A stretch of DNA of 64,000 bases, taken from Clostridia bacterium. Its GTDB lineage: Bacteria > Bacillota > Clostridia > Oscillospirales > CAG-272. Within the stretch, counting starts at the first letter, position 1. Every line of letters starts with the position of its first letter. Positions 42,288 to 59,803 of this stretch are shown piece after piece. A model generated the notes under the pieces. The model was not told where the DNA came from. It saw nothing but the letters and a program-made list of their open reading frames with translations, and searched no databases. Position numbers and translations under genes: made by a program. The stretch lies in NCBI GenBank assembly GCA_017483305.1, contig JAFULC010000044.1:127866-191865 (forward strand), given 5' to 3'.

Positions 42288-43154
42288 TTATAAGATGTTT
42301 TTAGCCAGCCTGTGACCGATAAGCGCAAGCTCGCGCTCCTGTCGGTCTCGCGCCTCTCCGTGCGGCATATCCCAAGAAACCATAGTCTCGAAGCTCAGCA
42401 CACCGTTAAATTTGATCTCGGCAAGCGCGTCTGAGAAATCGGTCCAATTTATGTTTCCGCGTCCGGGAATTTGATGAGAGTCCGCAGTTCCGTCGTTATC
42501 GTGTACGTGCAACGCGCCGAGATATGTGCCAAGCATTCTTACCGCATCGGCAGGCTTTTCGCCGCAGAAGTTGCAATGCCCCGTGTCGAGACATACGCGA
42601 AAAATATCGCTATTTGTTTCCCTGTTCATCAGACTTGCAAAATCAAGGCATTGGCGGGGACTGTTTATCGGGAGCTTAGGGAAAGGAAGAGTTTCAATAT
42701 TTATGTGCTTGACACCGTATTCCCTTGCAACCTCGGCAAGTGCACCCATAAACTCTATGTTCATCTGCACCACCCCCTCGGGATTCTCGGAGCTATCCTC
42801 GCCATACGGCATAAGCATGTGAATGACAAGATCGGTCGCGCCGATATACGCCGCCCCTCTCAACGCCTTTGATGCCTTCTCGAGCTTTATAGCTCGCTCC
42901 TCGGCACTGACACACTTCACGGGCGCTTCCCAAGGCGCGTGCGCTTGATTTACGCGTATTCCCTCTGCCTCTATAAGCCTTCTTTGCCTTGACAGCTCTT
43001 TTTCAAATTCGGATTCGGGGAGATTGAAAAATTCGGTATCGGTATGCATAAAGCTTGAATAATCGAAGCAATCAAACCCGTGCTCCCTCGCGCGTCTCGC
43101 GCCCTCTTCGACTCCGTATCTCAGATATGCGGGAGATTCAATTCCTATTCTCAT
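42288..43154 (-). CDS. Sugar phosphate isomerase/epimerase (xylose-isomerase-like TIM barrel)
   Basis: 288 aa. LDTGHCNF...LHVHDNDGTADSHQIPGRGNINW pattern. Confidence 0.75.
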   Translation of the reverse strand: MRIGIESPAYLRYGVEEGARRAREHGFDCFDYSSFMHTDTEFFNLPESEFEKELSRQRRLIEAEGIRVNQAHAPWEAPVKCVSAEERAIKLEKASKALRGAAYIGATDLVIHMLMPYGEDSSENPEGVVQMNIEFMGALAEVAREYGVKHINIETLPFPKLPINSPRQCLDFASLMNRETNSDIFRVCLDTGHCNFCGEKPADAVRMLGTYLGALHVHDNDGTADSHQIPGRGNINWTDFSDALAEIKFNGVLSFETMVSWDMPHGEARDRQERELALIGHRLAKNIL

Positions 43155-43178
43155 AACAAGTCTCCTTTTGCAAAGATC

Positions 43179-43709
43179 TTATAATATTTTTTCGTAGGCA
43201 ACCCTTTTGTCACCGTCGTTCAGATAAATAGTTCCGCAATGGACGAAATGATTTTTCTCCAGCATCCGTCTCATAACAACGTTTCCCTCGTGGGTGTCTA
43301 TTCTCAAGGACTTTTTCCCGAGAAAACGTGCAATATCTGCGGCAAAATCGATTATTTTGCCCGAAATTCCGCTCCCTCGGCTCGAGATCGCGATCGCAAC
43401 GCGATGGATCGCTATATATTGCCCCTTTTCGTCACCCGTAAGCCAATTTCCGTCGAAAATCTCGTCATACGTCGGCTCGCCGTGCAAAATCAGGGCAAAG
43501 GTGGCTATGATCTTGCCGTCGGACAGGACGCAATAGGACTGTTCCCTTTTTACGTCCTCCTCGATAATCGACCTTGACGGATAGCCGTTCTGCCATTGGT
43601 CGATTCCAAGCAAAGCGATCGTTTTTCTTGCCTCGGAGAATATCGGCATAATGCTATCAAGGTCTTTTGTCTCTGTTTTTCTGATGACTGTCACACCGTT
43701 ATCCTCCAC
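43179..43709 (-). CDS. GNAT-family N-acetyltransferase
   Basis: 176 aa. IAIHRVAIAISSRGSGISGKII is acetyl-CoA binding motif A. Confidence 0.8.
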   Translation of the reverse strand: MEDNGVTVIRKTETKDLDSIMPIFSEARKTIALLGIDQWQNGYPSRSIIEEDVKREQSYCVLSDGKIIATFALILHGEPTYDEIFDGNWLTGDEKGQYIAIHRVAIAISSRGSGISGKIIDFAADIARFLGKKSLRIDTHEGNVVMRRMLEKNHFVHCGTIYLNDGDKRVAYEKIL

Positions 43710-43812
43710 ACATAAAAGCTGTTTTACTTTGCTGAATTAATTGTACTATAAAGATAAATTTATGTCAATAAATATTGAAAATAAAAAATTTTAATTATTT
43801 TTCGAAAACCTA

Positions 43813-43841
43813 TTGAATTTTGAATTGGTTTATGGTATAAT
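43813..43841 (+). promoter_or_regulatory. Sigma-A promoter of the tRNA gene (TTGAAT-17-TATAAT)
   Basis: -35 at 43813-43818 and -10 at 43836-43841, about 30 nt before the tRNA 5' end. Confidence 0.75.
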
Positions 43842-43871
43842 GTTATGGTCGTAATAAAAACGGCATAATAC

Positions 43872-43947
43872 AGGGGTATAGCTCAGTTGGTAGAGTACTG
43901 GTCTCCAAAACCAAGGGTCGTGGGTTCAAGTCCTTCTGCCCCTGCCA
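43872..43947 (+). tRNA. trnW: tRNA-Trp (anticodon CCA), CCA-3' encoded; solitary gene with own promoter and terminator
   Basis: Hand fold: acceptor AGGGGTA/TGCCCCT, D arm GCTC-AGTTGGTA-GAGT, anticodon loop CTCCAAA, T loop TTCAAGT. Two non-Watson-Crick stem positions were noted (27-43 C/A, 50-64 T/T). Confidence 0.85.
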
Positions 43948-43950
43948 AGA

Positions 43951-43983
43951 AAAAAGCCATTCGCGTAAGCGGATGGCTTTTTT
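43951..43983 (+). terminator. tRNA-Trp terminator
   Basis: AAAAAGCCATTCGC-gtaa-GCGGATGGCTTTTTT. Confidence 0.85.
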
Positions 43984-43988
43984 CAACT

Positions 43989-44160
43989 AAATCCGTCCTT
44001 ACGGACGGGATAAATCCCACTAACGTGGGATGAAATCACATCGTGATGAAATCCCGCTTCGCGGGGAGAGAGGACGGATTTAATTTCATCTGAAGCCACA
44101 GGCTGAAGATTTCATCCGAACGGAGTGAGGATTTCATCGTGCGCAGCGCGATTTCATTTT
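43989..44160. repeat. Mirror-symmetric motif/hairpin array A: GAT(G/A)AAATC x3 forward, then GATTTCAT(C/T) x4 reverse, interleaved with unrelated short GC-rich hairpins
   Basis: Forward copies at 44009-16, 44029-37 and 44045-53. Reverse copies at 44083-90, 44108-16, 44130-38 and 44150-58. Intervening hairpins include CCGTCC-ttac-GGACGG, CCCAC-taac-GTGGG, CCCGC-ttc-GCGGG and ATCGTGC-gca-GCGCGAT. Confidence 0.8.
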
Positions 44161-44196
44161 CGTTACACGCCTTCGGCGCAATTTACCGCGAAACGG

Positions 44197-44225
44197 TTGA
44201 AATGTCCACGGATTTGTGCTATAAT
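44197..44225 (+). promoter_or_regulatory. Sigma-A promoter (TTGAAA-17-TATAAT), left copy of the island-bracketing promoter/leader module
   Basis: TTGAAAtgtccacggatttgtgcTATAAT. About 85 percent identical to 63474-63502. Confidence 0.75.
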
Positions 44226-44248
44226 GGGGAAAAGAAAGGGGCGAGAAT

Positions 44249-44689
44249 ATGCAAATACTTGAAGGAACAGAATATTTAGCAATTAAGGAATTGTTCGTTG
44301 AGCAATTTGTTGATCAGAGCTCAAGCTTCTATGTAGAACGCATCAAGAATAAACACCGTTTTTCGGACGGACTATTTCAAACGGGATATTTTTGGGATTG
44401 CTTGAAAAAATACAATCGAAAGACCGAAAAATATTGTATCGACGTATTATCAAGCAAGCATGAATTTTATGTCATATGGGACATTTTGAGTTCGGAGCAT
44501 ATACGCATACCGAATTATTATAAATATCCGACGGAGTCCTGTTTGAAACTTTCGTTCCAAGAGTATTTAGAAAAGTCGGATACTTTTCCCGAAGATATTT
44601 ATTTCTTTGACGATACTTTGTCTTGGTGCGTTATTCTAACACACGAAGATAATGGAAAAAGAAGATATTGCCTATCGATTGGATGTTAA
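44249..44689 (+). CDS. Hypothetical cytoplasmic protein (146 aa)
   Basis: RBS AAAGGGG. Motifs are FYVIWDILSSEHI and PEDIYFFDDTLSWCVILTHED. It resembles small immunity-type DUF proteins, but no confident family was recognised. Confidence 0.6.
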   Translation: MQILEGTEYLAIKELFVEQFVDQSSSFYVERIKNKHRFSDGLFQTGYFWDCLKKYNRKTEKYCIDVLSSKHEFYVIWDILSSEHIRIPNYYKYPTESCLKLSFQEYLEKSDTFPEDIYFFDDTLSWCVILTHEDNGKRRYCLSIGC

Positions 44690-45018
44690 GCGAAATACTT
44701 ACATAGCTTCGTTTCCAAGCATGGCGTTGCACCCCGGAAGATAGCGGTCAAGTGCAACTCCCATCATCGCCAAGGGATAAATCTGCCCTCACGGCAAAAA
44801 TCATGGACTGTTTTTGTACGATAGACTTATATGGATCTGTTTTGTAGTGGTATCACAAACCAAAAGGGATGGCAATCGTCTCTGCATTCTTAGCGGAGAA
44901 ATAGACGGCGGAAGTACCGAGTGTAATAAACGCCGTGTGGCTCAAAACGTTCAGAATCACCGCAAAAAGAAGAAAATCGCCGCATTACAGACGAAGGGCG
45001 TGGCGGCCGAATAAAGAA

Positions 45019-45067
45019 AATAGGCACCGAGCGAGAAATCCCTCTCGCACGGTGCCTATTCTTTTTT
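45019..45067 (+). terminator. Strong nested-hairpin terminator ending an apparently non-coding 330-nt stretch
   Basis: AATAGGCACCG-[GCGAG..CTCGC]-CGGTGCCTATT followed by CTTTTTT. Confidence 0.7.
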
Positions 45068-45178
45068 AGCAAACTCAGAAAGTATTAGAATCTTCTTGAA
45101 CAAGATAAAATTATCGTCAAGTACATCAACTTCTTGCGAAAGTTGGCTAAATTTTATTCAAATTATCTATAAAATCTA

Positions 45179-45233
45179 TTGTAATTTATATAATTATGTG
45201 CTATAATGATAATTGCAAGAACTTATTCTTGCA
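45179..45233 (+). promoter_or_regulatory. Promoter (TTGTAA-17-TATAAT) of the XRE gene plus inverted repeat TGCAAGAA-ctta-TTCTTGCA at the predicted transcription start
   Basis: -35 at 45179-84 and -10 at 45202-07, with the IR at 45214-45233. Confidence 0.65.
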
Positions 45234-45297
45234 CGATAAACAGAAAAATTATGACTATGAATGTTTAAGTCTTTCAAAAAGAGGGAGAGCATCAGCA

Positions 45298-45513
45298 ATG
45301 AAAATCAGTTACAATAAGCTTTGGAAAGTACTCGTGGATAAGAAAATGAGCAAAGCGGATCTTAGACGAGCAACAGAGATGGCTTCCAACACGATGACAA
45401 GCCTAAGACGTGACAAAAAAGTTTCACTCGACGTCTTGCTTCGTATCTGTGAGGCTCTCGATTGTGACATTGGTGATATAATGAGCGTTTATAAAGAGGA
45501 ACAGAACGCATAA
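45298..45513 (+). CDS. XRE-family helix-turn-helix transcriptional regulator (71 aa)
   Basis: MKISYNKLWKVLVDKKMSKADLRRATEMASNTMTSLRRDKKVSLDVLLRICEALDCDIGDIM is a typical short Cro/C1 HTH. GAGGGAGAG RBS. The track's start at 45196 is rejected. Confidence 0.85.
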   Translation: MKISYNKLWKVLVDKKMSKADLRRATEMASNTMTSLRRDKKVSLDVLLRICEALDCDIGDIMSVYKEEQNA

Positions 45514-45573
45514 CACAAGGACGAAAAAAGCCGTCCTTTGAAGCAATAATCTACTTCAGCAGACGGCGTGAAA

Positions 45574-45765
45574 TTATGAATTGGTATCGGTAGGATCGGA
45601 GTCGCTATCGGATATGTTCTCAAGTGCGTATTCCAAGCACTGAACAACGATCTTATTCATAGACGTGTTGTATTTTCCTGCAAGCATCTCGAGCTGTTCA
45701 ACGATGTGTACGGGAATACGGAACGTTTTGTTTACTGATTCAAAGCCTTTTTCAAATTCTAACAT
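45574..45765 (-). CDS. Ribbon-helix-helix (CopG/Arc-like) DNA-binding protein with acidic tail (63 aa)
   Basis: The beta strand FRIPVHIV is followed by helices EQLEMLAGKYNTSMNKIVVQCLEYAL. Confidence 0.6.
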   Translation of the reverse strand: MLEFEKGFESVNKTFRIPVHIVEQLEMLAGKYNTSMNKIVVQCLEYALENISDSDSDPTDTNS

Positions 45766-45840
45766 AATTGCACCTCACTATATACACTATTATGCACTAA
45801 AAATCGCCAAAAATAAATAAGCAAAATATATTCACTTATT

Positions 45841-45859
45841 CTTGCAAAGCGATTGCAAG
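45841..45859. promoter_or_regulatory. Perfect palindrome CTTGCAA-agcga-TTGCAAG in the divergent RHH / operon-1 control region
   Basis: Each arm is a -35-like TTGCAA facing outward. Plus strand reads TTGCAA(45853-58)-17-TATATT(45876-81). It shares the 13-mer ACTTATTCTTGCA with 45221-45233. Confidence 0.6.
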
Positions 45860-45886
45860 CGCATAGATATTATTATATATTAAAAT

Positions 45887-45930
45887 GTCGCTGTAAAAGC
45901 GACCACAATAGGCGAAAAATGTTAGATAAT
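45887..45930 (+). promoter_or_regulatory. GTCGC-N7-GCGAC palindrome exactly 21 nt upstream of a GATAAT hexamer (copy 1)
   Basis: GTCGCtgtaaaaGCGAC at 45887-45903 and GATAAT at 45925-45930. Same architecture at 56274-56317. Confidence 0.55.
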
Positions 45931-45972
45931 TAGAATGAAAATAATACAACCTGATAAAAAGCGGAGGGACGA

Positions 45973-48048
45973 ATGATGGCTGATAAGAAATATAGCGTTA
46001 TTTTAGAAAAGGTTGGCAATCAGCCCCTGATGACTACCAAGATATTATGTGGAGAGTTAGAGCTTGGACTCGCTAAGGCGAAAGGTCTGGTGGACAAGGT
46101 TCCGTCTACCATTGCGACCGATCTTGAAAGCGCAAAGGCTCTTGAACTGAAGAAAAAGCTTGAAGATGCTGGAAATACTGTGTCTATCCCCGGCTTGAAG
46201 ATTGAAGCCGAGCCCACTGCTAAAAAGAATGTGAAGTCGTCAGCGGTATCATCGGACGACGCCTTTGCTGCTATCTTTGGCGGTAGCACAACACCGAAGA
46301 CTACTACTGTCAAAAAGCAAAGCACATCAGGTACGACACCTAAAACAACCGCGGCAAAGGCAGAGCCGAAGAAAACTACGAGCAAAGCCCCGGCTTCCTC
46401 GAGTGATTCCTTTGATTCACTTTTCGGCGGTGCTGCTCCCCAAAAAGAGACAAAAACGCAGCCTAAAGCATCTGTGGCGAAGACTATGCGCAAGGAATAC
46501 AGCAATGGTAGCTACGAAGGTGAGATGAAGGACGGCGAGCCCCACGGATTCGGCACGTACCGTTGGAATGACGGCGACATTTACACAGGTGAGTACGTAA
46601 ACGGCACTCGTCATGGAAAGGGCAAGTTTGTTTTCGCAAGCGGTAACTATTACGATGGCGAATGGGCCAATGGAAAATATCACGGTCATGGCATTTTCCG
46701 TTGGAGCGACGGAGACGAATTTGACGGCGAATGGCAAAATGGCCAGCGCCACGGCAAAGGCAAATGGACATATTCCGACGGCAGATATTATACGGGCGTT
46801 TGGGAAAACGGTGAGAGTATTAGTTCTTCTTCAATCGTATATCCCTCAACCTCAAATGCCACGACTGCAACAAAAACTGCCCCGAAAGCTACAACCACCA
46901 AGGGTCGAATTCAATACGAACACAGCTATTACGAAGGTGACCTCGTGGATGGAATTCAGCACGGCAAAGGCGTGTACGTTTGGGATAACGGAACAAGATA
47001 CGAGGGAGATTTCTTTGAAGGAAATATAACGGGTCGCGGTATTTGTTATTACACAAACGGCAATCGCTTCGAGGGCTGTTGGAAGAATGGCATAAGGAAC
47101 GGTGATGGCACATTTTACGAATATGACGCAGGCATCAAACAGTTTCGTTACAAACACGTAGGCGTATGGTCGAATGGCAAGCGCGAGGGCGTTTTTGAAT
47201 GTTATCTTTATGACGAGGACGATGCGTCTAAGCTGCGCTCTTACGATTTCTATAAAAACGACGAAATGAAGATAGCTTATATGGTGCGTGCATTGTACGA
47301 AAAAGGGATCACCACCAAGGAGGGCGTGCTGCGTTATCACGAGGAGCAGACCTCGCACAGATCGAAAAGAGCCACGCCATCTGTCTCTACCCGATCATCA
47401 AGTTCTAAAGACTATGCACTGGATTGCGCCGACAAAGCAATGCAAGCGTATACCAACAGAGACTATTTCCGAGCGGCTTATTACTTGTATCAATGCGGTA
47501 GTAGTGGAAGCACGTTTTATCGTGACGTAGCAGAAAGATGCTATCATCCCTCGGGTGCTACGGGATATTCGTACGTAGAAAACATCTTAACCGGAGATAG
47601 CTTGGGTAACGTTTCCGACGATGAAATCAATATTTGCGCATTCGTTCTTGACAAATTTGTTCCGAAAGGCACTAAGAACAGCAAAACGTATCGCGCTTGG
47701 TGCTATTATAGATCGGGAGATGTTAAGAAGGCTGCCGGGATGATACCGAATAGGGGCTTGATGTTCTACGACGGAAGGATACAAGACATAAACGAAATCA
47801 TGGGCGGAAAACCGCTTTCCAAAATCACCCCGTATAGCGATGAGATTATGGCAAACCTGCTTATATGTAAATTATGGGCGAAGTTAGATATGGAGCACGA
47901 TTGGGTAAGCCAGCTTCGCAGAAACGAGCATCTCAAGGAGAAGCTTTTGCTTGCGGAAGCATATATAAAATTTGCCAAAAAGGAAAGATGGCAATATGAA
48001 GTTGCCGAGATTGAAAAGGATATGCTCACATTTAAGGCGGCGCTGTGA
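45973..48048 (+). CDS. Ribosomal L7/L12 C-terminal-domain homologue fused to two MORN-repeat blocks and a ~270-aa helical C-terminal domain
   Basis: 691 aa. KYSVILEKVGNQPLMTTKILCGELELGLAKAKGLVDKVPSTIATDLESAKALELKKKLEDAGNTVSI aligns with the L12 CTD consensus (FDVIL..aG.kKI.vIK.VR.iTGLGLKEAKdLVd.aP..v...vsKeeAe.iKkkLEeaGA.V). Thr/Lys-rich linkers. MORN repeats such as YEGEMKDGEPHGFGTYRWNDGDIYTGEYVNGTRHGKGKF. The ATG at 45976 is an alternative start. Confidence 0.8.
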   Translation: MMADKKYSVILEKVGNQPLMTTKILCGELELGLAKAKGLVDKVPSTIATDLESAKALELKKKLEDAGNTVSIPGLKIEAEPTAKKNVKSSAVSSDDAFAAIFGGSTTPKTTTVKKQSTSGTTPKTTAAKAEPKKTTSKAPASSSDSFDSLFGGAAPQKETKTQPKASVAKTMRKEYSNGSYEGEMKDGEPHGFGTYRWNDGDIYTGEYVNGTRHGKGKFVFASGNYYDGEWANGKYHGHGIFRWSDGDEFDGEWQNGQRHGKGKWTYSDGRYYTGVWENGESISSSSIVYPSTSNATTATKTAPKATTTKGRIQYEHSYYEGDLVDGIQHGKGVYVWDNGTRYEGDFFEGNITGRGICYYTNGNRFEGCWKNGIRNGDGTFYEYDAGIKQFRYKHVGVWSNGKREGVFECYLYDEDDASKLRSYDFYKNDEMKIAYMVRALYEKGITTKEGVLRYHEEQTSHRSKRATPSVSTRSSSSKDYALDCADKAMQAYTNRDYFRAAYYLYQCGSSGSTFYRDVAERCYHPSGATGYSYVENILTGDSLGNVSDDEINICAFVLDKFVPKGTKNSKTYRAWCYYRSGDVKKAAGMIPNRGLMFYDGRIQDINEIMGGKPLSKITPYSDEIMANLLICKLWAKLDMEHDWVSQLRRNEHLKEKLLLAEAYIKFAKKERWQYEVAEIEKDMLTFKAAL

Positions 48049-48076
48049 TAGCTTTGATACGGCAGAAGGAGAAATT

Positions 48077-49981
48077 ATGAACGGTGAAGTAATATTATCA
48101 ATATGCGCGATACTGACACTGCTGATTTTCGCAGTGGGTGTGGCGCTCGTCATACTGAATAGAAAGGATCTCAAGCGCGTGGTGCGCGTTCTCGGTGTGT
48201 GCGTCTTTCTGATGCTGATGTCGGGAATCTATCCGTATTATCACGAGGAAACCTATGCCATTGGTCTGACACTGGTTGAGAGTATGTGCGCGATGCTGTT
48301 AAACTCCAATCCCGGAGAGATCCTTGCGGGATTTAACGGCTTTGATGTGGCGTATCTCGGTATTTATAAAACAGCACTCCTCGTGCTCTTAATTATCGCA
48401 CCGCTTTTCACCGTTGGTATTACCTTGTCCTTCTTCTCGGAAAAGTTCACAAGAATAATTTACCGTATCCGCTCGGAGTTCAGCGATTCTTATTTGTTTT
48501 CGGCAATCAACGAGCGTACCCTGTGTATCGCCGAGGACGTTGCCGAAACCGACAGAAAGGCAGTTATCGTTTTTGCCCTGCGCATTTCCGAGGATGATAT
48601 CGATGCAGAATCACTTGCTCGCATTAAGGACATAGGCGCATATATAATAAGCGATGACGTATCGCAGCTGAAGCATAGTCTGCGTCGCACGCGCAATTAT
48701 TACCTTCTTGATACCAACAATAGCGAAAATCTTGAAGCAGGACTGCGAATATACCAAAAGTACAACAAAGAGCATACCGATAAGGTAAATATGTGGATCT
48801 ACACAAAAAATGAGATCACGGAGGTTATCTTCGACTACCTATACGAGACCTTCAACGTCAGACTTATCAATGAGGAAGGACTGATTGCAAGAACTCTTGC
48901 TACCGATTACCCCGTCTTTGACGCGGTTAAGGACGGAAGACTTTCAATATTGATTGTGGGTGGTGGTCATATCGGGCTTGAAATCCTTCGCACTATGACT
49001 ATGTGCTCCTGTCTTGGAGATGACGTTGACGTTGACATCAACGTAATAGACTTGAACGGAGAAAAATCGAGAGATATATTTGAAAAAGACTCCCCCGGTC
49101 TTGCAGATAAATGGAAGGTTAAATTCCATAGCGCAGACGTAAAATCTGTTGCTCTTGCAAAAGTACTTGAAGGCTTAGACCCCTCGTATATCGTGATCTG
49201 CCTTGGCAATGAAACACTTAATATGGAAACCGCAATTTATATTCGCCGTAAATACGGCATCGAGAACGGTCTGCCCCTCATTCACACCCTCGTGGATCAT
49301 AAGAGCATTGACGAGCAGATCATTCCGAATCTTTGCGTTTCGGATTGGAAGTACAATACAGAACACCGAAGATTTGAAAGTACGCCTATTTGCTCATTTG
49401 AAATCAAGACCTTCGGCAGCTACGAGGATACCTACAAGGGACTTCGCATCGGTGCATCCTATCGGGACTGTCTCGCTGTTGCGGTGAACGCCGCTAACCG
49501 CGGTATTACGGCGGTGGATAGTCAAAACAACGCCGAGTGGCTTACCGATCTGTACAACCAGGTTGATTTTTACAAGGATTATTCCGACGCCTTTGCAGTA
49601 TCCATTCCCTATAAGCTGTGGCTTCTCGGTCTTGAGCTTGTTGATGACGGAGACGGAGAGGTTTCGGATCTGGAAAACCTTCTCGAAGCTAATATAGACA
49701 GACTTCGCAGGAACGAAAACAAACGCTATGAAGCTTTTATGCGCAGTAAAGGGTGGACACAGATGATGCCGAGCGAGGTCAGAGACGGAAGAATGGGCAA
49801 TAAGCTTCAAAAGAAGCACGCAAGAATTGATCCGCAGTATACCAAGGAGCTTGAAGAGATGACAGGACGGGATTTTTCTAAGGAGGACGTTCGTTCCATT
49901 ATGAACCTTCCCACCGTGATCCGCATTGCAAATGCTCTTTACGGCAGAAATTATTCTGTCAGAAAAAACAAGATTAAATAA
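48077..49981 (+). CDS. Membrane protein: 4-5 N-terminal TM helices, Rossmann/TrkA-N-like region(s) and a C-terminal RyR-like domain
   Basis: GAAGGAG RBS lies before ATG 48077. LSILIVGGGHIGLEILR is a GxGxxG motif. The C-terminal NENKRYEAFMRSKGWTQ...KKHARIDPQYTKELEEMTGRDFSKEDV resembles bacterial RyR domains (weak). Confidence 0.6.
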   Translation: MNGEVILSICAILTLLIFAVGVALVILNRKDLKRVVRVLGVCVFLMLMSGIYPYYHEETYAIGLTLVESMCAMLLNSNPGEILAGFNGFDVAYLGIYKTALLVLLIIAPLFTVGITLSFFSEKFTRIIYRIRSEFSDSYLFSAINERTLCIAEDVAETDRKAVIVFALRISEDDIDAESLARIKDIGAYIISDDVSQLKHSLRRTRNYYLLDTNNSENLEAGLRIYQKYNKEHTDKVNMWIYTKNEITEVIFDYLYETFNVRLINEEGLIARTLATDYPVFDAVKDGRLSILIVGGGHIGLEILRTMTMCSCLGDDVDVDINVIDLNGEKSRDIFEKDSPGLADKWKVKFHSADVKSVALAKVLEGLDPSYIVICLGNETLNMETAIYIRRKYGIENGLPLIHTLVDHKSIDEQIIPNLCVSDWKYNTEHRRFESTPICSFEIKTFGSYEDTYKGLRIGASYRDCLAVAVNAANRGITAVDSQNNAEWLTDLYNQVDFYKDYSDAFAVSIPYKLWLLGLELVDDGDGEVSDLENLLEANIDRLRRNENKRYEAFMRSKGWTQMMPSEVRDGRMGNKLQKKHARIDPQYTKELEEMTGRDFSKEDVRSIMNLPTVIRIANALYGRNYSVRKNKIK

Positions 49982-50006
49982 AATATAAAAAAGCGAGGAA
50001 ATGATA

Positions 50007-50633
50007 ATGGATATTATTAATGGGGTTAGAGAACTTTGTAAGGGCGAAAACGGTTTCGTAAATATGTTTGACAAGGCAAAAAGCGGCGGTAAGCTTGGAC
50101 AACTCACTGACGGCGACCGAGAAGCTGACCTTTTTGAAACGCTTCTTTACGGCAGCGCAAGAGAGACTCTCGTCGAAATGATAAACGATGCCTACAATTT
50201 CAAGCAATATGCGGTAGAGGCACACGGCTTGCTTGTGGAAGACGGTCTTGATGCTATGGATGCCAAGAGAGCGCTTGAGATATTCTTTATAGCATTTGGC
50301 TTCCCCGGATACAGAACTATGGGAGCACAGGAAACCATCGTTGACGAGAGCGGAAACTCTAAAACTGTGTATGAGGGTGAGGTAAAGAACGGCAAGCCTC
50401 ACGGATGCGGTTCGCGCAACTTCTATTACGAAGGAAAATGGTCTGCTCTTGACGAATGTGTATGGATTGACGGTATAATGATTGGCTATGATTATGCCAA
50501 AGAGCTCGAATTCGACGCATTTGAAGATCAGAAAATTGGCTTCGTTATTAACGATCGCTTCGTAGGAAATATAAGAATTATTGCAAGTGACGGCGAGGAA
50601 TTCGACGACGGCGGTACAAAGTTTACCGTTTAA
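50007..50633 (+). CDS. Hypothetical protein with a short MORN-like segment
   Basis: YEGEVKNGKPHGCGSRNFYYEGKW. GAGGAA RBS favours ATG 50007 over 50001. The antisense ORF 49974-50639 is rejected. Confidence 0.6.
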   Translation: MDIINGVRELCKGENGFVNMFDKAKSGGKLGQLTDGDREADLFETLLYGSARETLVEMINDAYNFKQYAVEAHGLLVEDGLDAMDAKRALEIFFIAFGFPGYRTMGAQETIVDESGNSKTVYEGEVKNGKPHGCGSRNFYYEGKWSALDECVWIDGIMIGYDYAKELEFDAFEDQKIGFVINDRFVGNIRIIASDGEEFDDGGTKFTV

Positions 50634-50666
50634 AATCACACATTACTTATGCTTTAAGGAGTTATT

Positions 50667-51065
50667 GTGAGCAATTTAAAATGCTTGAAAAAGGCAAATG
50701 AGGGTGACACCGAGGCTATGCGCATTGGTGAGAAGCTCTATAATTTGCAGGATGCGACCGAGGATGAGGTAGAGGCAGGTACGCTTTGCCTTAACAAATG
50801 GTATGTAGAGCGCAAATATAAAACTCAGGTATGCGAGCCCGGTCGTTCAAGTCCTTATTACGATATGAGAAGCGAAATGCAGGAGCTCTCTTTTGAAGAA
50901 TTGATCTTCAATGGAGGAGAATGCATTGGAGCATACCACGACGAGCTGGTTTTCCTGTTCGACGATGAAAAAACTCATTATCATCAAAAGTATCTTGGTG
51001 AAATGAAGATCAGCTACGACCAAGGAATCGATTTCTACGACTATTACTATCTGCACATCAGATGA
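50667..51065 (+). CDS. Hypothetical protein (132 aa), GTG start
   Basis: AAGGAG lies 5 nt before GTG 50667. The N-terminal KKANEGDTEAM resembles a Sel1 half-repeat. Confidence 0.5.
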   Translation: MSNLKCLKKANEGDTEAMRIGEKLYNLQDATEDEVEAGTLCLNKWYVERKYKTQVCEPGRSSPYYDMRSEMQELSFEELIFNGGECIGAYHDELVFLFDDEKTHYHQKYLGEMKISYDQGIDFYDYYYLHIR

Positions 51066-51085
51066 TGCAGTGAAAGGAGCAGACT

Positions 51086-51214
51086 ATGTTTGATGCTATG
51101 AAGGTTAAAAATGATTGCGTAAACTGGATACGAGAGTTCTTCCGTGAGAACGGTCCCGACTGTAATGCCGTTCTCGGCATTGAAATTGTAAACCGGGAGG
51201 GATACATAAAATGA
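51086..51214 (+). pseudogene. 42-codon ORF that looks like the N-terminal stub of an NH3-dependent NAD+ synthetase (PP-loop ATPase), ending just before the SGGxDS motif
   Basis: MFDAMKVKNDCVNWIREFFRENGPDCNAVLGIEIVNREGYIK. The VNWIRE..(6-7 aa)..AVLGI pattern matches NadE N-termini (..wlr......g.k.vvlGlSGGiDS). AAAGGAG RBS. Its stop overlaps the next start (ATGA). Confidence 0.4.
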
Positions 51215-53448
51215 AAAAACTAATGAAAATAACGTCATTGCTGCTTTCCATAGTCATGCTTACGTCAACATTCACAGGCTGCGGATTTATGTTCGGCGGC
51301 ACCGAGGAGCAGGAGGATGAATTTAATCCGCCGTATCTTGAAAATTACTATGTGAATAAGCATGATCCCGTCGTTGTTTCGGGCGGAATCGAAATACATA
51401 AATACGACGAGGATGCCGAAGCCTTATGGATGGGCGGATATCCTTATCACGGCGGATTTGAGTTCAGAGGCAGCACGTTCGGTGAGAATAAAGCCATAGT
51501 AGATCTGCCCCTTGACGGACTTTATGAGAATATCAGCTTTGTCATCGGTGGCAGATGCGGACACATTACCGAGGTGATCGATGAAGACGGCAATGTTACG
51601 TATCCCTATGATGCCAGTCAGTATAACTGCTCGCCTCCCACGCTTTACGGATATGCGAAAGAGCAAAAGGTAGGTCTTCAGTTCTGGGTGGATGACAAGA
51701 TGGTACAGGAGGTTATTTTCTCCAACTATCAGGTACCTGTCCGTTATACCTTCAACGTTTCGGGTGCACAGAAATTTACCTTCAAGCAGGTAGCGGCAGA
51801 ACCCATTGTTATACCCGTTCTTGAGCTTACTGTTTGGGAGGGAGAAGCCCACGAAACGGGACACATTACCGAACCTGCCGGAAGCGAGCCGGTTCAGCTT
51901 ATCAAGGATCTGAAGCCATATCAGATTCCCGCTACGTCGAGCGCGGTGTATTATCCCAACGTTGACCCTACCTACGAGGGCAGAAACCACATCAATATGA
52001 GCACCATTCGATACGAGAACGTAATAGCAACCTACGTGTCGCAGGGACTTATGACCGATGACGAGGAAGATATTTATTTTAACCTTGAGGGCAAATACAA
52101 TTATCTGACCTTTACCGCGGGTGTAGCAGACAGAACCACGAACAACAGTGATGGCTCGGCATGGCTGACCGTCTATGCCGACGGCAAGATCATTCACGAG
52201 GAGGTCTATTCCTCCCACGAGCTTCCGAGAAGGACAACGGTCAATGTCGAGGGCTGTCATCAGCTCAAATTTGCATGGCTCACTGACGAAGGAAACCTGG
52301 AGTACGGAGACGGAACGGGTAATTTCTTCGGTATCGGCGACGCTTACGTTGCTACCACCGAGGCGGCACTCGAAACGATCAAATATTCTTCCCGTGATCT
52401 GCCCGACAGACCCGTAAAAATGGTATCCGAGCTTGGCGCGTTCGCAATTTCCAGCAGTGTTGAGCAAGCCGTATTTGACGGTTCTTCCCAGCTTAGCACC
52501 TTCTCTATGGGCGGTGTGAAGTACAACGAAGGTATTATTCTCATCGCATCCAACAGTATGCTTGAAACCAGACCTGCGTGCGTATCCTTCAATCTTGGCG
52601 GAAAATACGATACTATCTCCTTTATTGCAGGTCATATTGCCAACAGTGATGTTTACAAGAACGATCAGATCGAGATTTACGCCGACGGCGTTCTGATAAA
52701 GACAATCAATGTGGATTGTACCATGTTGCCTGAGAAATATGTGGTGGACGTAACGGGCTGTCAGCATCTTGAATTTATTTCCGGTAAGGCAACCAACGGT
52801 AGTTGGTATCGCCCTGCGCTGGGTATTGTAAACTTAATTGCTTATCCCGACGGATATGTGGAAACTGATCTCTTCCCCGAGAGAAGTCCCGCAGATTATG
52901 GTAAATCTTGTGATCTGATCGAAACTTTCGGCTTTTATGACGTACATAGCGGAGGACGTACGGAGACCGATATCGGCGGTGTTGACGTTGAGGACGGTTA
53001 TTATGACGGCTCGACTCAGAAAAACTATTTCACAATCGGCGACAGAAAGATTAATAGTGGCGTACTTCTCCGAACCAGCGTGCATTTAAGCTTGGATACA
53101 GATATGATACAAGATGCCATTTTCTTCACTGGATTGGTTGTTTTGGCAGGAGAGGAGGCGCACGAATCGGCGTTTGCTCTGGCGAATATCAAGGACAGCG
53201 GCTATACTTCCGTGACCTTCACTGTTGCAATGCAAAAAGAAACAGGCTATGAGGATGAAACGATCTTAAAGATCGGTGCTGATGACAAATGCGTGAAAGA
53301 GATTACGCTTTTCAAGGATATGAAGCCCACCACGTATACAGTAGAGCTTGGCGAAGATTGCGGAAGACTTTTGTTCTTCCTTGAATGCACCATTGAGGAC
53401 GACACCTCGCATACCTATGCGATCTACGATATTAAACTGAATAAATAA
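51211..53448 (+). CDS. Lipoprotein with four NPCBM-like (putative carbohydrate-binding) repeats
   Basis: 745 aa. Signal/lipobox is LLSIVMLTSTFTGC. Four repeats follow the pattern Y..(I/L)(S/T)F.(A/I)G.......(V/I)..(Y/W).D......(V/I)........(V/Y).V.(V/L).G...L.F, as in NPCBM/F5_F8-like modules. Confidence 0.6.
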   Translation: MKKLMKITSLLLSIVMLTSTFTGCGFMFGGTEEQEDEFNPPYLENYYVNKHDPVVVSGGIEIHKYDEDAEALWMGGYPYHGGFEFRGSTFGENKAIVDLPLDGLYENISFVIGGRCGHITEVIDEDGNVTYPYDASQYNCSPPTLYGYAKEQKVGLQFWVDDKMVQEVIFSNYQVPVRYTFNVSGAQKFTFKQVAAEPIVIPVLELTVWEGEAHETGHITEPAGSEPVQLIKDLKPYQIPATSSAVYYPNVDPTYEGRNHINMSTIRYENVIATYVSQGLMTDDEEDIYFNLEGKYNYLTFTAGVADRTTNNSDGSAWLTVYADGKIIHEEVYSSHELPRRTTVNVEGCHQLKFAWLTDEGNLEYGDGTGNFFGIGDAYVATTEAALETIKYSSRDLPDRPVKMVSELGAFAISSSVEQAVFDGSSQLSTFSMGGVKYNEGIILIASNSMLETRPACVSFNLGGKYDTISFIAGHIANSDVYKNDQIEIYADGVLIKTINVDCTMLPEKYVVDVTGCQHLEFISGKATNGSWYRPALGIVNLIAYPDGYVETDLFPERSPADYGKSCDLIETFGFYDVHSGGRTETDIGGVDVEDGYYDGSTQKNYFTIGDRKINSGVLLRTSVHLSLDTDMIQDAIFFTGLVVLAGEEAHESAFALANIKDSGYTSVTFTVAMQKETGYEDETILKIGADDKCVKEITLFKDMKPTTYTVELGEDCGRLLFFLECTIEDDTSHTYAIYDIKLNK

Positions 53449-53460
53449 GGAGGCAACACC

Positions 53461-54180
53461 ATGAGGTATTTGACTTGGGATGAAGTAAAAAGCCTTGACA
53501 AATTCTTGGTCGAGGACAATGACGATGCCGTCGGCATCGAGATCCATACCGGATTCTATGATCTATCAGCGGACAACCGCTACAGCAAGCCGGAAACAGT
53601 AAAGGCTTATTCTCTGGAGGAACTGGCCGGCGGTGATTTTATCCAGATGGGAACAGAAACCCTGCGTGCAGTGGTGAGCAATCGTCTTTATTGGACGGAT
53701 AGTCGGAATTGGGTTGAAAATTCGGGCACGGATGCTGCCTATATCGGTGCCCGCCGGGGGAACGGATACGAATATGAGCGGGCGATACTGACCTTCAAGG
53801 ATACGCTGGAACGGCTGCCGGACGAGGAAGTGATTTCCCTGAAACGCTTCCTGGTCAGGGACAACAAACGGGTCAAAGCGGTGCGCATCATGCCCGGCTA
53901 TATGGGCATCGGCGGCTCCAATACCTCCGGTTTTTCATCGGATAGTGAGCGGATTCGAGATTACCCTCTGGAATATCTGAAAAACAACGAATTTATATGG
54001 GTCCAGGGCGTTTCTGTTCGGGCGCTGGTGGATGACGTGCTGTATTTCTGCCGCAAGGGCGCTGACGGAAACAGCAAGGTGTTTACCCTGAATTATAGAG
54101 AACGGGATACCATTTTTCATGGTGAGGGTGTCGCCTATGATACGATCGCTGCAACGGAAGTTGTATTGCTGCTTAAGTAA
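53461..54180 (+). CDS. Hypothetical protein (239 aa) with an internal duplication; deviant codon usage
   Basis: LDKFLVEDNDDAVGIEIHTGFYD... is repeated as LKRFLVRDNKRVKAVRIMPGYMG.... CTG/CGG/GTG codons dominate from about 53580. Confidence 0.6.
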   Translation: MRYLTWDEVKSLDKFLVEDNDDAVGIEIHTGFYDLSADNRYSKPETVKAYSLEELAGGDFIQMGTETLRAVVSNRLYWTDSRNWVENSGTDAAYIGARRGNGYEYERAILTFKDTLERLPDEEVISLKRFLVRDNKRVKAVRIMPGYMGIGGSNTSGFSSDSERIRDYPLEYLKNNEFIWVQGVSVRALVDDVLYFCRKGADGNSKVFTLNYRERDTIFHGEGVAYDTIAATEVVLLLK

Positions 54181-54201
54181 GAGAAAGTGAGGAATAACAA
54201 T

Positions 54202-54723
54202 ATGGCTTGGAGAAGTTACTATATTAACTGTGAAAAAATATATGGCATAGACGAAGAAGAAAAAGACGTTTGCATTATGTACGACTTAAATATCCCACCC
54301 CACGGCGGCATCCGAGAGGAATGGACAACAAGGGGAATGAAGAACGGCTCGTCCAAGGTTTTATTTGTGGAGTATTGCAAGGAGGATGACGATCCCGACG
54401 GTGTATGGGAAGCTTTTGGTATGAAGGCAGAATCGGTATATACCTTTACGGTAAATGCGAAAGAGGCAGATCCCGAGAAGCTGTTTGTTTACACCCTTTA
54501 TAAGGACGGCAAGCTTGGTGTCGGATTTGACATCGATACCAACACCGCCCGCGCTATTTTAGTATTTCCCTTCCCTCAGAATATAACCGCAGAGCAATTG
54601 CTTGCCGTTGCGAAAAAAGCAGAGGATGCTCCGCGAGACTTGGAAGCAGTTGAGCAGTTCGTCGTTGAAAATCTGTTGTGTGGTGCGAAAGACGTGACGT
54701 GCCTTGCATTTTTCAACTTGTAA
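54202..54723 (+). CDS. Hypothetical protein (173 aa)
   Basis: GAGGA RBS lies 8 nt before ATG 54202. No family recognised. Confidence 0.55.
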   Translation: MAWRSYYINCEKIYGIDEEEKDVCIMYDLNIPPHGGIREEWTTRGMKNGSSKVLFVEYCKEDDDPDGVWEAFGMKAESVYTFTVNAKEADPEKLFVYTLYKDGKLGVGFDIDTNTARAILVFPFPQNITAEQLLAVAKKAEDAPRDLEAVEQFVVENLLCGAKDVTCLAFFNL

Positions 54724-54768
54724 TCATACAGAATAAAGGCAACTAACCGAAAAAAGGGAGTGATGCTT

Positions 54769-55767
54769 ATGGCAAAGAAGCTTTATTTACATATTAAATG
54801 GGATGAAACAAGAGAAAAAAACGGTTCAAGAGCAGGCGATGACGGCATTTATGACGTAGAGATAAACGAGGGTGATGAGTTTAAGCTCATCTGCCACCTG
54901 AAAAAAGCAACCGTTACGAAGCTCACCGATGACGAGGTAACTCTTGATATTCCCGATAAGGGCGAGTATTTACTTAGGTTGAACGAGACCGCAACGATCC
55001 GTTATAGCGACGGACATCAGTCTTGCGGTGACTGGGTCGACGAGAGATTGACCTACGAGATCAAGCTGTCGAATATGAGCCTTGACGAGTACGAGGCATC
55101 CTTGCCCGAGTTCGATATTAAAGACGGAGTGCTCATAAATGCTCGTCCTAAAGGAGAGGTGGCGGTTGTACCCGAGGGAGTTGTTGAAATCGGGCACAAG
55201 GCCTTCTGTGAGACAAAGATCAAAGAGGTAGTTTTGCCGTCAACTCTTAAAAAAATCAGTTCGTTCGCCTTTTCGAAGTGCCGTTATTTGAAACGTGTAA
55301 CGCTCCCCGAAGGACTGGAAGAATTAGGATTCTACGCCCTTTCTGATACAGCCATCGAGGAGATCAATTTCCCGAGGAGCCTTCGATATATCGACGATAG
55401 CGTCTTTCGCGGAACTCCCTTCCTTAAAAGGATAAAGGACGATAGATTTGTCATACTGGGAGAGCGTTTCCTCTACGGCTACAATGGCTATGACGACACG
55501 GTGGAGATTCCCGACGGTGTTGAGGTTATATGCTCCTGCGCCTTTGACTCAAGAGAGAAAGACAAGGACTATTATTACGTTACACCGAAAAAAATCATTC
55601 TGCCAGATAGCGTAAAACAAATTGATGGATGCGCATTCAGATATCAGTATGGTCTTAGGGAAATTAATTTGCGTGCAGATATGGACATCTCTGCCACAGC
55701 CTTTGACAAATCGGGATATGAGGAAAGCTTTAAGGCGTTCCTCGCCGCTAAAGGTGAGAAAAAATGA
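54769..55767 (+). CDS. BspA-type leucine-rich-repeat (LRR_5) protein with N-terminal small beta module
   Basis: VVPEGVVEIGHKAFCETKIKEVVLPSTLKKISSFAFSKCRYLKRVTLPEGLEELGFYALSDTAIEEINFP are typical ~23-aa BspA LRRs. No signal peptide. Confidence 0.75.
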   Translation: MAKKLYLHIKWDETREKNGSRAGDDGIYDVEINEGDEFKLICHLKKATVTKLTDDEVTLDIPDKGEYLLRLNETATIRYSDGHQSCGDWVDERLTYEIKLSNMSLDEYEASLPEFDIKDGVLINARPKGEVAVVPEGVVEIGHKAFCETKIKEVVLPSTLKKISSFAFSKCRYLKRVTLPEGLEELGFYALSDTAIEEINFPRSLRYIDDSVFRGTPFLKRIKDDRFVILGERFLYGYNGYDDTVEIPDGVEVICSCAFDSREKDKDYYYVTPKKIILPDSVKQIDGCAFRYQYGLREINLRADMDISATAFDKSGYEESFKAFLAAKGEKK

Positions 55768-56234
55768 AGGATTTAGTTATACAATGTAAAGAATACATTG
55801 CAAAAGGCGGCGAATCCATCATAAAAAGAGCGTTCGGAAGAATGCCCCGTATGGCAGAAATCAATATGAGTGAAGTGGAACTCTATATGTTGGAGAATAA
55901 GGACGCTTCATTCAACGAGCTGCTTTTTATGATGATAGACCGAACGGGACAGAAAGACAGCGACGTGTATAAGAGGGCACGAATAGACCGCAGGCTCTTT
56001 TCAAAAATCCGTTCAAGTAAAAAATACGTTCCGTCAAAGAAAACTGTCATTGCGTTGTGCCTCGCTCTTGAGCTTTCGAGAGATGATGCAAATATACTAC
56101 TTGCCTCGGCAGGATACAGCCTGTCAAGGTCGGATGATTACGATCTCGCTATTGCCTTTTGCATATCAAGGGGAATATTTGATTTTAACGATATAAACGA
56201 GCTTTTATATGAATTAGGCTTTGAGGTTTTTTAA
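55764..56234 (+). CDS. HTH-domain protein (XRE-like fold), probable DNA-binding regulator
   Basis: 156 aa. Its ATG overlaps the upstream TGA. DSDVYKRARIDRRLFSKIRSSKKYVPSKKTVIALCLALELSRDDANILLASAGYSL is a recurrent Firmicutes HTH module. Confidence 0.55.
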   Translation: MKDLVIQCKEYIAKGGESIIKRAFGRMPRMAEINMSEVELYMLENKDASFNELLFMMIDRTGQKDSDVYKRARIDRRLFSKIRSSKKYVPSKKTVIALCLALELSRDDANILLASAGYSLSRSDDYDLAIAFCISRGIFDFNDINELLYELGFEVF

Positions 56235-56273
56235 ATAATGCCGACGCATTAAAAAACAGGACAGATCGTAAAT

Positions 56274-56317
56274 GTCGCCGTAAAAGCGACCAAGTAAAAG
56301 CCAAGGTGTGAGATAAT
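56274..56317 (+). promoter_or_regulatory. GTCGC-N7-GCGAC palindrome exactly 21 nt upstream of a GATAAT hexamer (copy 2)
   Basis: GTCGCcgtaaaaGCGAC at 56274-56290 and TGaGATAAT with GATAAT at 56312-56317. About 50 nt of similarity with 45883-45935. Confidence 0.55.
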
Positions 56318-56341
56318 ATAGGCGTAAAGGAGAGTACAATT

Positions 56342-56965: not shown

Positions 56966-56977
56966 AGGAGGCTTATT

Positions 56978-57181
56978 ATGGCTGAAAAATTAAAATGCCC
57001 ATACTGCGGTAGCGAAAACCTAACCCGTATGGACGGCAGCGGAACTCTAAAGAAATACGGCAACGACGTTATGATCGATATCGCTCCCGACATCGTTTAC
57101 TGTAACGATTGCAAAAAGGATTTCAGAGCACCGTTCTTTGACGATCTGACGCTCGACGAGGCGATTTTAGATCAAGAGTGA
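56978..57181 (+). CDS. Zinc-ribbon mini-protein (67 aa)
   Basis: CPYCGS...CNDCKK, with RBS AAAGGAGG. Confidence 0.6.
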   Translation: MAEKLKCPYCGSENLTRMDGSGTLKKYGNDVMIDIAPDIVYCNDCKKDFRAPFFDDLTLDEAILDQE

Positions 57182-57191
57182 GGTGATTACG

Positions 57192-57473: not shown

Positions 57474-57492
57474 ACATAAAAGGAGAAAAATC

Positions 57493-57720: not shown

Positions 57721-57735
57721 CAGGAGGTGAATGCC

Positions 57736-57999: not shown

Positions 58000-58017
58000 G
58001 CATAGGAGGAAGAAGAT

Positions 58018-58596: not shown

Positions 58597-58661
58597 TATC
58601 AGCTATCAGTATAAAAACATAATTATTACAAGGTTTTGAAATCTTTAGAGGAGAATGTGTG

Positions 58662-59786: not shown

Positions 59787-59803
59787 ATTCAGGAGGAAAC
59801 GCT

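Follow-up and report, generated by a model that had tools for sequence, protein, structure and literature searches.

A 64,000-nucleotide stretch of DNA from a Clostridia bacterium of the order Oscillospirales (GenBank assembly GCA_017483305.1, contig JAFULC010000044.1, positions 127,866 to 191,865; in the following called the window) carries, just past a tRNA-Trp gene, a short motif, GATGAAATC, which is repeated in both orientations with GC-rich mini-hairpins between the copies. This region, array A, is a member of a known but unexplained family, Gut-1 (Rfam RF01706), and not an element of a new kind. The Rfam Gut-1 model is the left half only of a repeated module of ~210 nt. The module is a multi-copy element specific to Oscillospirales and linked to genes for tRNAs and transfer-messenger RNA (tmRNA). 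Its hairpins are preserved by compensatory change, its linkers are maintained by homogenisation, and arrays as well as half-arrays are exchanged between loci and genomes.

Array A and the Gut-1 family

Gut-1 was found in human gut sequences only and could be assigned to no known organism (Weinberg et al. 2010, Genome Biol 11:R31; PMC2864571). It was published with three hairpins, (G/A)UGAAAU linkers between them, covarying stems and the gut microbiome as its source (Weinberg et al. 2010; PMC2864571). Literature searching returned the 2010 discovery paper only, and the family has been an orphan since then, with host, context and function lacking until the relatives described here gave it a host and a context.

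In a local search with relaxed filters (model positions 1-77) the + strand of array A matches Gut-1 at 43984-44057 with 47.0 bits (E = 2.6e-8), which is 3 bits under the curated gathering cut-off of 50 bits, and the - strand matches at 44104-44165 with 29.8 bits (E = 5.7e-4). The closest relatives of array A (loci L129, L130 and L186) reach 50.0-53.1 bits. Furthermore, the Gut-1 seed sequences BAAX01002128, BAAV01000542 and BAAY01000031 start with CAACUAAAUCC and possess AUGAAAU linkers as array A does, and the supplementary alignment of 2010 includes this CAACUAAAUCC...AUGAAAU subtype. Array A belongs to the Gut-1 family, though below the curated threshold; the order of linkers and hairpins, the subtype, the compensatory changes and the gut source are alike. 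Even the setting is alike, as the flanks of the 2010 alignment contain tRNA genes just upstream, mirrored linkers just downstream and tandem copies ~240 nt apart, all of which went unremarked by its authors. In contrast to the published form, the unit found here comprises a terminator, a dyad of four plus four linkers and a closing helix, and it lies past tRNA or tmRNA genes in metagenome-assembled genomes (MAGs) of Oscillospirales from humans and ruminants. In addition, the strand features of its two halves clash with a simple one-strand RNA.

A k-mer cluster scan of the window revealed one other site of the same design at 63290-63475, array B. It is part of a second whole module on the + strand (63254-63503) which is composed of a terminator, array B with the linker GTGAAATA (four forward and four inverted copies) and a promoter at 63474-63503. 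On the + strand array B passes the Rfam cut-off (63289-63363, 56.4 bits), and on the - strand it reaches 49.3 bits (63384-63475). Modules A and B have the terminator form AAAAAAGCC...GGCTTTTTTC in common, the promoters after both arrays are nearly alike (TTGAAATGTYCACRGATTTGTGNTATAATG), and their linkers differ although both lie in one window. This second module lies ahead of an open reading frame (ORF) for a PQQ/beta-propeller-like protein with its start at 63527.

The Rfam model extends over no more than half of the unit, and many copies fall below its threshold. Just the tRNA-proximal half is called, and this in about two thirds of the arrays tested; the GTGATGT variant is missed, and the arrays under the threshold include L120, L123, L131, L135, L239 and L249. 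Two arrays of the same design, L159 past tRNA-Leu with the linker GTGATGC and L249 past tRNA-Trp with the linker GTGATGT, are both below it.

New for Gut-1 are the host (Oscillospirales of the human and ruminant gut) and the address past tRNA and tmRNA genes, as well as an architecture that is larger than the Rfam model and a mode of evolution in which the eight linkers change in concert and the hairpins drift through compensatory substitutions. With host, address, architecture and mode of evolution now visible, the function of Gut-1 becomes testable with regard to strand, protein partner and movement. For annotation, the arrays mark the boundary between a core tRNA locus and a variable accessory cluster in abundant, poorly studied gut bacteria.

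Architecture of the module

The module starts directly past the 3' CCA of the tRNA-Trp (CCA) gene, which is located at 43872-43947 on the + strand (ARAGORN; Rfam tRNA 59.6 bits). Its first part is a bidirectional intrinsic terminator at 43949-43984, in which a 16-nt inverted repeat (I1, 94% complementary) is preceded by an A-tract and followed by a T-tract. Because the A-tract lies on one side and the T-tract on the other, this hairpin is predicted to terminate transcription both ways. The same series of A-tract, stem and T-tract is found ahead of array B and of nearly all relatives.

In the left half of array A (43984-44070, + strand) the linkers AACTAAATC, GGATAAATC, GATGAAATC and GATGAAATC are each followed by a hairpin, namely h1 (43991-44011), h2 (44014-44031), h3 (44035-44047) and h4 (44052-44066); this is the region covered by the Rfam Gut-1 model. 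The right half (44077-44158, - strand) comprises four inverted linkers of the GATTTCATC type with h5 (44088-44110), h6 (44114-44132) and h7 (44136-44152) in between. The centre (AGGACGGATTTAATT, 44071-44085, + strand) is the 3' strand of a predicted long-range helix, P0, and can pair with 43985-43999, where the first linker and the 5' arm of h1 are located (inverted pair I3, 15 nt, 93% complementary). All seven spacers are self-complementary, with tandem G.A mismatches on the + strand in two of them, h5 and h6. The closing pairs of every hairpin are ATC...GAT contributed by the neighbouring linkers, and therefore only GAA in the left half and TTC in the right half are left unpaired. At the array end, h7 and the T-rich tail TTCATTTTCG (44136-44165, + strand) form a terminator-like site.

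GATGAAATC is present in four exact copies, two on the + strand (44029 and 44045) and two on the - strand (44108 and 44130), and in two copies with one mismatch, both on the - strand (44082 and 44150). Two degenerate forward copies, AACTAAATC (43985-43993) and GGATAAATC (44008-44016), were read off the sequence, and the centre contains a fifth inverted copy (GATTTAAT), which is overlapping. A first-pass annotation, made from the letters of the window, had counted three forward and four inverted copies. The four inverted copies are confirmed, but the forward copies number four when the degenerate ones are included, so that the plan of array A is four forward and four inverted linkers. The array of a short motif and self-complementary GC-rich spacers is real. 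The 64-kb window contains six exact copies of the motif compared to 0.99 +/- 0.97 in 100 dinucleotide shuffles, none of which held six, and four of the six fall inside 110 nt of array A. The orientation flips once, as had been described, at ~44070-44085, and the array was correctly judged to be unlike iterons and too short for CRISPR.

Array A is positioned between a terminator and the next promoter, and no convincing promoter-like site was found inside it or at its centre on either strand. The promoter that follows (44197-44225, + strand) belongs to the ORF at 44249-44689 and is a strong sigma-70-type site, TTGAAA-17-TATAAT, with 11 of 12 consensus positions and an upstream TG. The core TGAAAT of the motif had been equated with the -35 element of this promoter, and the sequence agrees with it; moreover, the -35 TTGAAAT mirrors the TTTCAAC of the left end of array A (inverted pair I16). 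The complementarity of the centre to the first arm, the terminator as a part of the module, array B and the tandem G.A of h5 and h6 are additions to the first-pass annotation.

Distribution and genomic position

The family was searched with a pattern reaching from the left end to the centre, CAACNAAATCC N60-90 GGATTTNATWTCA, in GTDB genomes represented by one per species. This yielded more than 119 matches, and extra copies were found in metagenomes. Among the matches listed, all 80 of 80 loci are from Clostridia, mostly MAGs of Oscillospirales from human and ruminant guts, and their labels include Oscillospiraceae, Acutalibacteraceae, Faecousia and Ruminiclostridium. With the same pattern 2 true family copies were detected in 2.9 million viral contigs; a general direct-repeat pattern gave mostly noise on viral contigs. 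A BLAST search of 43940-45600 against phage and plasmid collections gave no match, and a look-up of contigs by exact protein returned nothing beyond identical copies of the locus.

The order of the module is a bidirectional terminator, four units of linker and hairpin, the centre, four mirrored linkers with three hairpins and, often, an outward promoter. In 75 distinct arrays among the matches listed, four linkers are present on the left in 69 and on the right in 58. Scars of serial cassette insertions, which had been offered as one explanation of the array, are rejected because this 4 + 4 architecture is conserved. The address of the module recurs as well. Among the matches listed, 45 of 79 assessable arrays start 29-44 nt, i.e. 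the length of the terminator, past a co-oriented tRNA gene (21 anticodons) or tmRNA gene, and of the 88 genes for tRNA or tmRNA in these loci 85 have the orientation of the array. CCA or CA directly precedes the first position of the module. Where an intact tRNA gene is missing ahead of it, the sequence before the A-tract usually ends with CA(A)G, and in many cases it can be recognised as a piece of a tRNA 3' end.

A contig of the viral collection (L016, 5160-5400) contains a Gut-1 dyad array whose linkers are GTGAAAT, and past it tandem repeat units of GGTAACTTGCC and CTATCTGCTAT; a tRNA gene is not nearby. Just past the tRNA terminators of L126 and L178 there are contiguous TTCACTNT octamers and then their inverse (AGTGAA), without hairpin spacers. 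These tracts may represent a different kind of repeat at tRNA flanks.

Conservation of the hairpins

A comparison across relatives, which had been proposed together with the first description of the hairpins, demonstrates that the arms covary. Each hairpin position has 6-18 distinct 5' arms, and the complementarity of the arms over four variable positions is 2.9-3.4 within an array versus 1.2-2.3 between arrays. For 28 diverse arrays RNAalifold predicted 28 pairs, 17 of them with double compensatory changes, and it favoured the long-range helix P0, in which the centre is paired to the first linker and arm, rather than the local h1. In 28 relatives P0 is 98.4% paired over 11 pairs and shows double changes from G-C to A-U at two positions in 11 sequences. 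The competing h1 is 93.9% paired over 6 pairs. Such double changes are seen in 11-12 sequences for the two helices, and the pairing of both exceeds shuffled and slid controls. As P0 and h1 are both conserved, two mutually exclusive helices are both maintained. The variable inner stems are 88-93% Watson-Crick and contain about 1% G.T.

On the + strand the loops of the left half are pyrimidine-rich (TTC, TGC, TTGC) and those of the right half are GNA or GNRA (GAA, GCA, GCAA). In the relatives, h5 and h6 repeatedly show tandem G.A mismatches within a Y-GA-R context, likewise on the + strand. Both GNA loops and tandem G.A stabilise DNA hairpins. When the arrays are folded as RNA, the energy of the + strand versus the - strand is -66.4 vs -60.9 kcal/mol for array A and -75.3 vs -70.5 kcal/mol for array B. 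The fold of array A lies 3.95 standard deviations below that of shuffles, and long-range pairs gain 10-18 kcal/mol over local hairpins. A strand test based on G.U pairs gave no decision, with too few G.T or A.C mismatches in the inner stems (5 vs 12 on the left, 10 vs 4 on the right), and the apparent G.U strand bias is due to the closing pair of GTGAAAT versus ATGAAAT only. Complementarity between the loops of left and right hairpins, as in kissing interactions, was not found in array A. Readings of GAUGA or GGA as box C/D, kink-turn or CsrA-type motifs were dropped because the closing pairs occupy most of the linkers, and the likeness of GTGGGATGAAATC (repeat family D3) to a tRNA T-arm is taken as chance.

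Exchange and homogenisation

The gene order of the window, a GNAT acetyltransferase gene followed by tRNA-Trp, is preserved in three metagenome contigs, and an identical terminator stem is shared by the orthologous loci of the window, L245 and L249. At this site, in related species, the linkers are ATGAAAT in the window, GTGAAAT in L245 and GTGATGT in L249, and all hairpins differ; unchanged are the plan of 4 + 4, the pairing of P0 and the promoter with its 5' leader (AGAAAGGCGGTG). The eight linkers of an array are therefore kept alike while arrays diverge, even within one genome as in the case of A and B. Near-identical arrays sit past different tRNA genes in different MAGs, and in L185 and L192 the left half of one type is joined to the right half of another. 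Tandem modules occur in L137, L180, L191 and L198. In L194 and L162 an array is located between the terminator stem and its T-tract. T-runs flank many array copies but not all of them, and L194 has its T-run on the right side only. An empty orthologous site was not recovered among these loci, and the same tRNA-Trp site is filled by different arrays. In gut DNA metagenomes the depth relative to single-copy flanks is 2-12x for pieces of array A and 10-130x for pieces of array B.

Transcription

Unstranded metatranscriptome contigs span the tRNA gene, the terminator and array A up to ~44150, and some of them cross the centre. The metatranscriptome depth on array A is 40-330 versus 2-7 on the next gene. 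However, gut DNA metagenomes display a similar depth excess over the flanks for array A and array B, because the element is multi-copy, and in the case of array B RNA surpasses the flanks no more than DNA does. Multi-copy DNA or a signal at mRNA level can therefore explain the RNA contigs, and in view of these DNA controls the high metatranscriptome depth, which first looked like expression, is no proof of a discrete RNA, although one may exist.

Possible function of the module

Our preferred reading, which is a tentative one, is that the module may be a palindromic DNA repeat comparable to repetitive extragenic palindromes (REP) and their bacterial interspersed mosaic elements (BIME, REPIN) or to miniature inverted-repeat transposable elements (MITEs), kept by selection on its single-stranded form and in the window separating tRNA-Trp from the accessory cluster. 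This is suggested by the dyad symmetry, the high copy number, the exchange between loci and the near-perfect Watson-Crick stems, and likewise by the GNA loops with tandem G.A, the promoterless array and the position past terminators. The linkers would then be repeated recognition sites for a trans-acting factor. The hairpins would matter in the single-stranded state, either as single-stranded DNA during spread or replication or as read-through RNA, and the element would spread, or be swapped, among sites just past terminators. At the window locus it could provide a structured spacer and a two-way transcription stop where the strongly expressed tRNA-Trp gene meets the accessory cluster with its first promoter, and might in this manner serve as an insulator.

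The REP, BIME and REPIN sequences of Proteobacteria are short extragenic palindromes which occur in both orientations past gene ends and terminators, are multi-copy and lineage-specific, are kept as hairpins and are thought to act single-stranded. REP stems have a conserved sequence and a 5' GTAG which is recognised by the REP-associated tyrosine transposase (RAYT). The family of array A resembles them as clustered palindromes past terminators in multiple, lineage-specific copies. In contrast, its stems vary within and between arrays, only the linkers of 7-9 nt are conserved, the number of units is fixed at 4 + 4, a conserved stem with a 5' tetranucleotide of the GTAG type is missing, and in the loci searched by tblastn a RAYT or Y1 gene was not found linked to the arrays. 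Some MITEs carry outward promoter elements, e.g. the Correia elements, and the ends of insertion sequences (IS) can supply a -35. Like these promoter-carrying MITEs, the module is small, exists in many copies and often supplies the -35 of a hybrid promoter with its right end; terminal inverted repeats are present as well (pairs I3 and I16, TTTCAAC...GTTGAAA; in relatives the ends TTTTCAAYNAAATC / GATTTCATTGAAAA). Unlike MITEs it has no clear target-site duplication and no autonomous relative was found for it, and its interior is made of ordered, covarying mini-hairpins.

Several observations weigh against a DNA repeat. By tblastn of the 80 loci neither transposase nor RAYT nor integrase is linked to the arrays, and target-site duplications are ambiguous, the T-runs flanking only part of the copies. 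REP/BIME sequences and ordinary MITEs have neither a unit number held strictly at 4 + 4 nor stems that vary inside a single array. Furthermore, the mutually exclusive conserved helices P0 and h1 are more typical of a regulatory RNA, in both arrays the fold of the + strand is more stable by 5 kcal/mol than that of the - strand, and Gut-1 was graded as 'certainly' RNA on account of its covariation (Weinberg et al. 2010; PMC2864571).

The latter points suit the original Gut-1 proposal of a structured non-coding RNA, either a 3' trailer produced by read-through of the tRNA terminator or a transcript of the other strand that is ended by the bidirectional terminator. It is a possible explanation, although we hold it to be somewhat unlikely. 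Such an RNA would form a rod or a multi-branched fold with P0 closing h2-h4 and linkers paired with anti-linkers, and it could function as a protein sponge, a scaffold or an element for processing or stability. The Rfam match, the compensatory changes, the two alternative helices, the fold energy with its long-range pairing and + strand preference, and the metatranscriptome contigs that run from the tRNA gene across the centre to the end of array A at high depth are all in line with it. GNRA loops and tandem G.A are also common RNA motifs, and the conserved A-tract of the terminator would be expected if transcripts from the array side must stop too. However, a promoter was found on neither strand and a strong terminator lies directly upstream, the variable stems contain hardly any G.U pairs, and the depth excess recurs in DNA metagenomes, with array B having no greater excess in RNA. 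Moreover, loop type and G.A mismatches indicate opposite strands in the two halves, which for the left half is contrary to the strand of the Rfam model. Of the explanations in the first-pass annotation, the multi-hairpin RNA comes nearest to the record: the near-threshold Gut-1 match and the covarying hairpins speak for the structure, but an action as RNA could not be shown. Recombination at tRNA genes has to be considered too. Array, terminator and a companion piece (...ACA, described below) could be the arm or accessory-site region of an attachment (att) site for small gene cassettes, which a recombinase with its gene at another place would insert serially at the CCA end of genes for tRNA or tmRNA; the linkers would serve as arm-type binding sites, and crossover would take place at the centre or at the CA|G junction. 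The start of the module exactly past CCA or CA agrees with this, tRNA and tmRNA 3' ends being classical integration sites, and so do the co-orientation of the companion piece in its 11 occurrences, the diverse cargo genes with their own promoter and the chimeric arrays, which break at the centre; the linker variants could mirror recombinase specificities. As in integron attC sites and the arm sites of tRNA-integrating elements, structure is conserved over sequence, cassettes or tRNA 3' ends are neighbours, and short sites occur in both orientations; by eye, the TTTCAAC / GTTGAAA ends fit RYYYAAC/GTTRRRY at 6 of 7 positions. But in place of the single R''-L''/L'-R' hairpin of attC the interior consists of seven hairpins, an adjacent integrase was not found, and the attL signature of a tRNA-integrating element, a bounding tRNA 3' repeat together with an internal integrase, is absent. 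No tRNA 3'-end repeat of >=10 nt was detected downstream of 45 tRNA-adjacent arrays or in the 20 kb to the right of tRNA-Trp, integrases are not enriched near arrays, recombinase-bearing elements and displaced tRNA fragments lie upstream of a module that is older than they are, and true matches on viral contigs are confined to the two mentioned above. Arm sites would also leave the covarying hairpins unexplained. A role as att platform appears distinctly improbable.

A bolder idea, unlikely but conceivable, is that the dyad module is the platform recognised by a mobility or recombination system of Oscillospirales, so far undescribed, which targets the site past tRNA and tmRNA genes, with a protein acting in trans that reads the eight linkers on folded single-stranded DNA and assembles promoter-led accessory cassettes. 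If true, this would be a tRNA-anchored analogue of integron attC/attI or of REPIN-RAYT, with cassettes such as the immunity-like genes of the window. Array A is unlikely to be a locus-specific operator. More generally, a duplex DNA operator or decoy, whose eight linkers would bind a regulator (an HTH, i.e. helix-turn-helix, protein of the island or the 23S_rRNA_IVP protein described below) or titrate sigma factor as pseudo -35 boxes, is highly unlikely. Such a role could be based on TGAAAT as the core of the -35 at 44197, on the last inverted linker overlapping a TTGAAA -35 in 12 of 64 relatives to give ATTTCATTGAAA, on the position of the 23S_rRNA_IVP gene shortly after the array in 13 of 80 loci, and on the fact that the copies of one array share one sequence as binding sites do. 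Downstream genes and the distance from array to promoter vary, however, and in 41 of 64 arrays no promoter-like site was found within 150 nt. Arrays A and B use different linkers in one window, and the variants GTGATGT and GTGATGC are not -35-like. In a scan of the window GATGAAATC was not found at the other promoters of the downstream island, and its two exact copies outside array A (47620 and 60548) are within ORFs; besides, a duplex operator needs no covarying hairpin spacers. The earlier suggestion of an operator for the XRE, RHH and HTH proteins of the island, or of a decoy -35, is weakened, though not refuted, by the occurrence of the same module past 21 kinds of tRNA genes and tmRNA with unrelated genes downstream.

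Neighbouring genes and mobile elements

The genes past the arrays are diverse and include HTH regulators, transporters and small proteins of no assigned role. The most conspicuous association is with a gene for a four-helix-bundle protein of ~115 amino acids, 23S_rRNA_IVP (PF05635, E = 5e-26). In 13 of the 80 loci among the matches listed (L140, L142, L143, L148, L150, L151, L152, L156, L167, L175, L186, L188 and L195) its start is 193-240 nt from that of the array; it is also present in L239. The TTGAAA -35 box is overlapped by the last inverted linker in the majority of these loci. A reverse transcriptase, as in diversity-generating retroelements, was not seen among the ORFs following five PF05635 genes, which were read without a Pfam scan. 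To the right of array A the window (44200-63250) encodes MORN-repeat, Sel1, DUF1963, LRR_5 (BspA) and NPCBM proteins, HTH_26 regulators and many proteins without family match, and this cluster looks like an accessory, immunity-protein-like island. No integrase is among 24 ORFs of 44200-63250 that were scanned against Pfam, a list which is not exhaustive.

Recombinase-bearing elements are located between the tRNA gene and the module in L004 (tyrosine integrase) and in L239, whose recombinase is probably a serine recombinase, judging by its C-terminal sequence only. In L121, L123, L131, L132, L154, L179 and L199 an intact tRNA gene precedes an insert of 190-290 nt, past which a displaced tRNA 3' fragment leads into the terminator and then the array. 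Several of these inserts open with a long palindromic terminator which includes the complement of the tRNA 3' end, and they look like remnants of tRNA-integrated elements. As the recombinase elements and the displaced tRNA fragments lie between tRNA gene and module, the module is the older flank. By tblastn a tyrosine integrase was detected in 2 of 80 loci, upstream of the module, and an IS200-type Y1 transposase in 1 of 80 loci and not in the window, the search covering the window and the loci; neither integrases nor Y1 genes are enriched near arrays. The Y1 gene is a pseudogene in the right half of an array past tmRNA (L125, 4857-5615). Another array, L199, has an insertion of ~50 nt in the h5 loop (~660-710).

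A further multi-copy element is situated at 44696-44860 of the window, between the first ORF and the next genes, and ends with ATCTGTTTTGTAGTGGTATCACA. Its depth in gut DNA is 37-117 versus 5-10 on the flanks and is high in RNA runs too; a search against Rfam gave no match. The companion piece, which is related to this element (ATCT.TTTT.GTAGCCCATAGACA; ATCT.TTTT.GTAG...ACA), occurs 11 times in the loci, always co-oriented with the arrays. It is found after an array, after one or two cargo ORFs (window 44835-44857; L140), or immediately ahead of another terminator with its array, in some cases 57-59 nt before the next module. Past each companion piece there is a terminator-like hairpin, or an A-rich stretch in the case of the window. 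The cumulative GC skew of the window has its minimum at ~43000-45000, where the genes, until then mostly on the - strand, change to the + strand.

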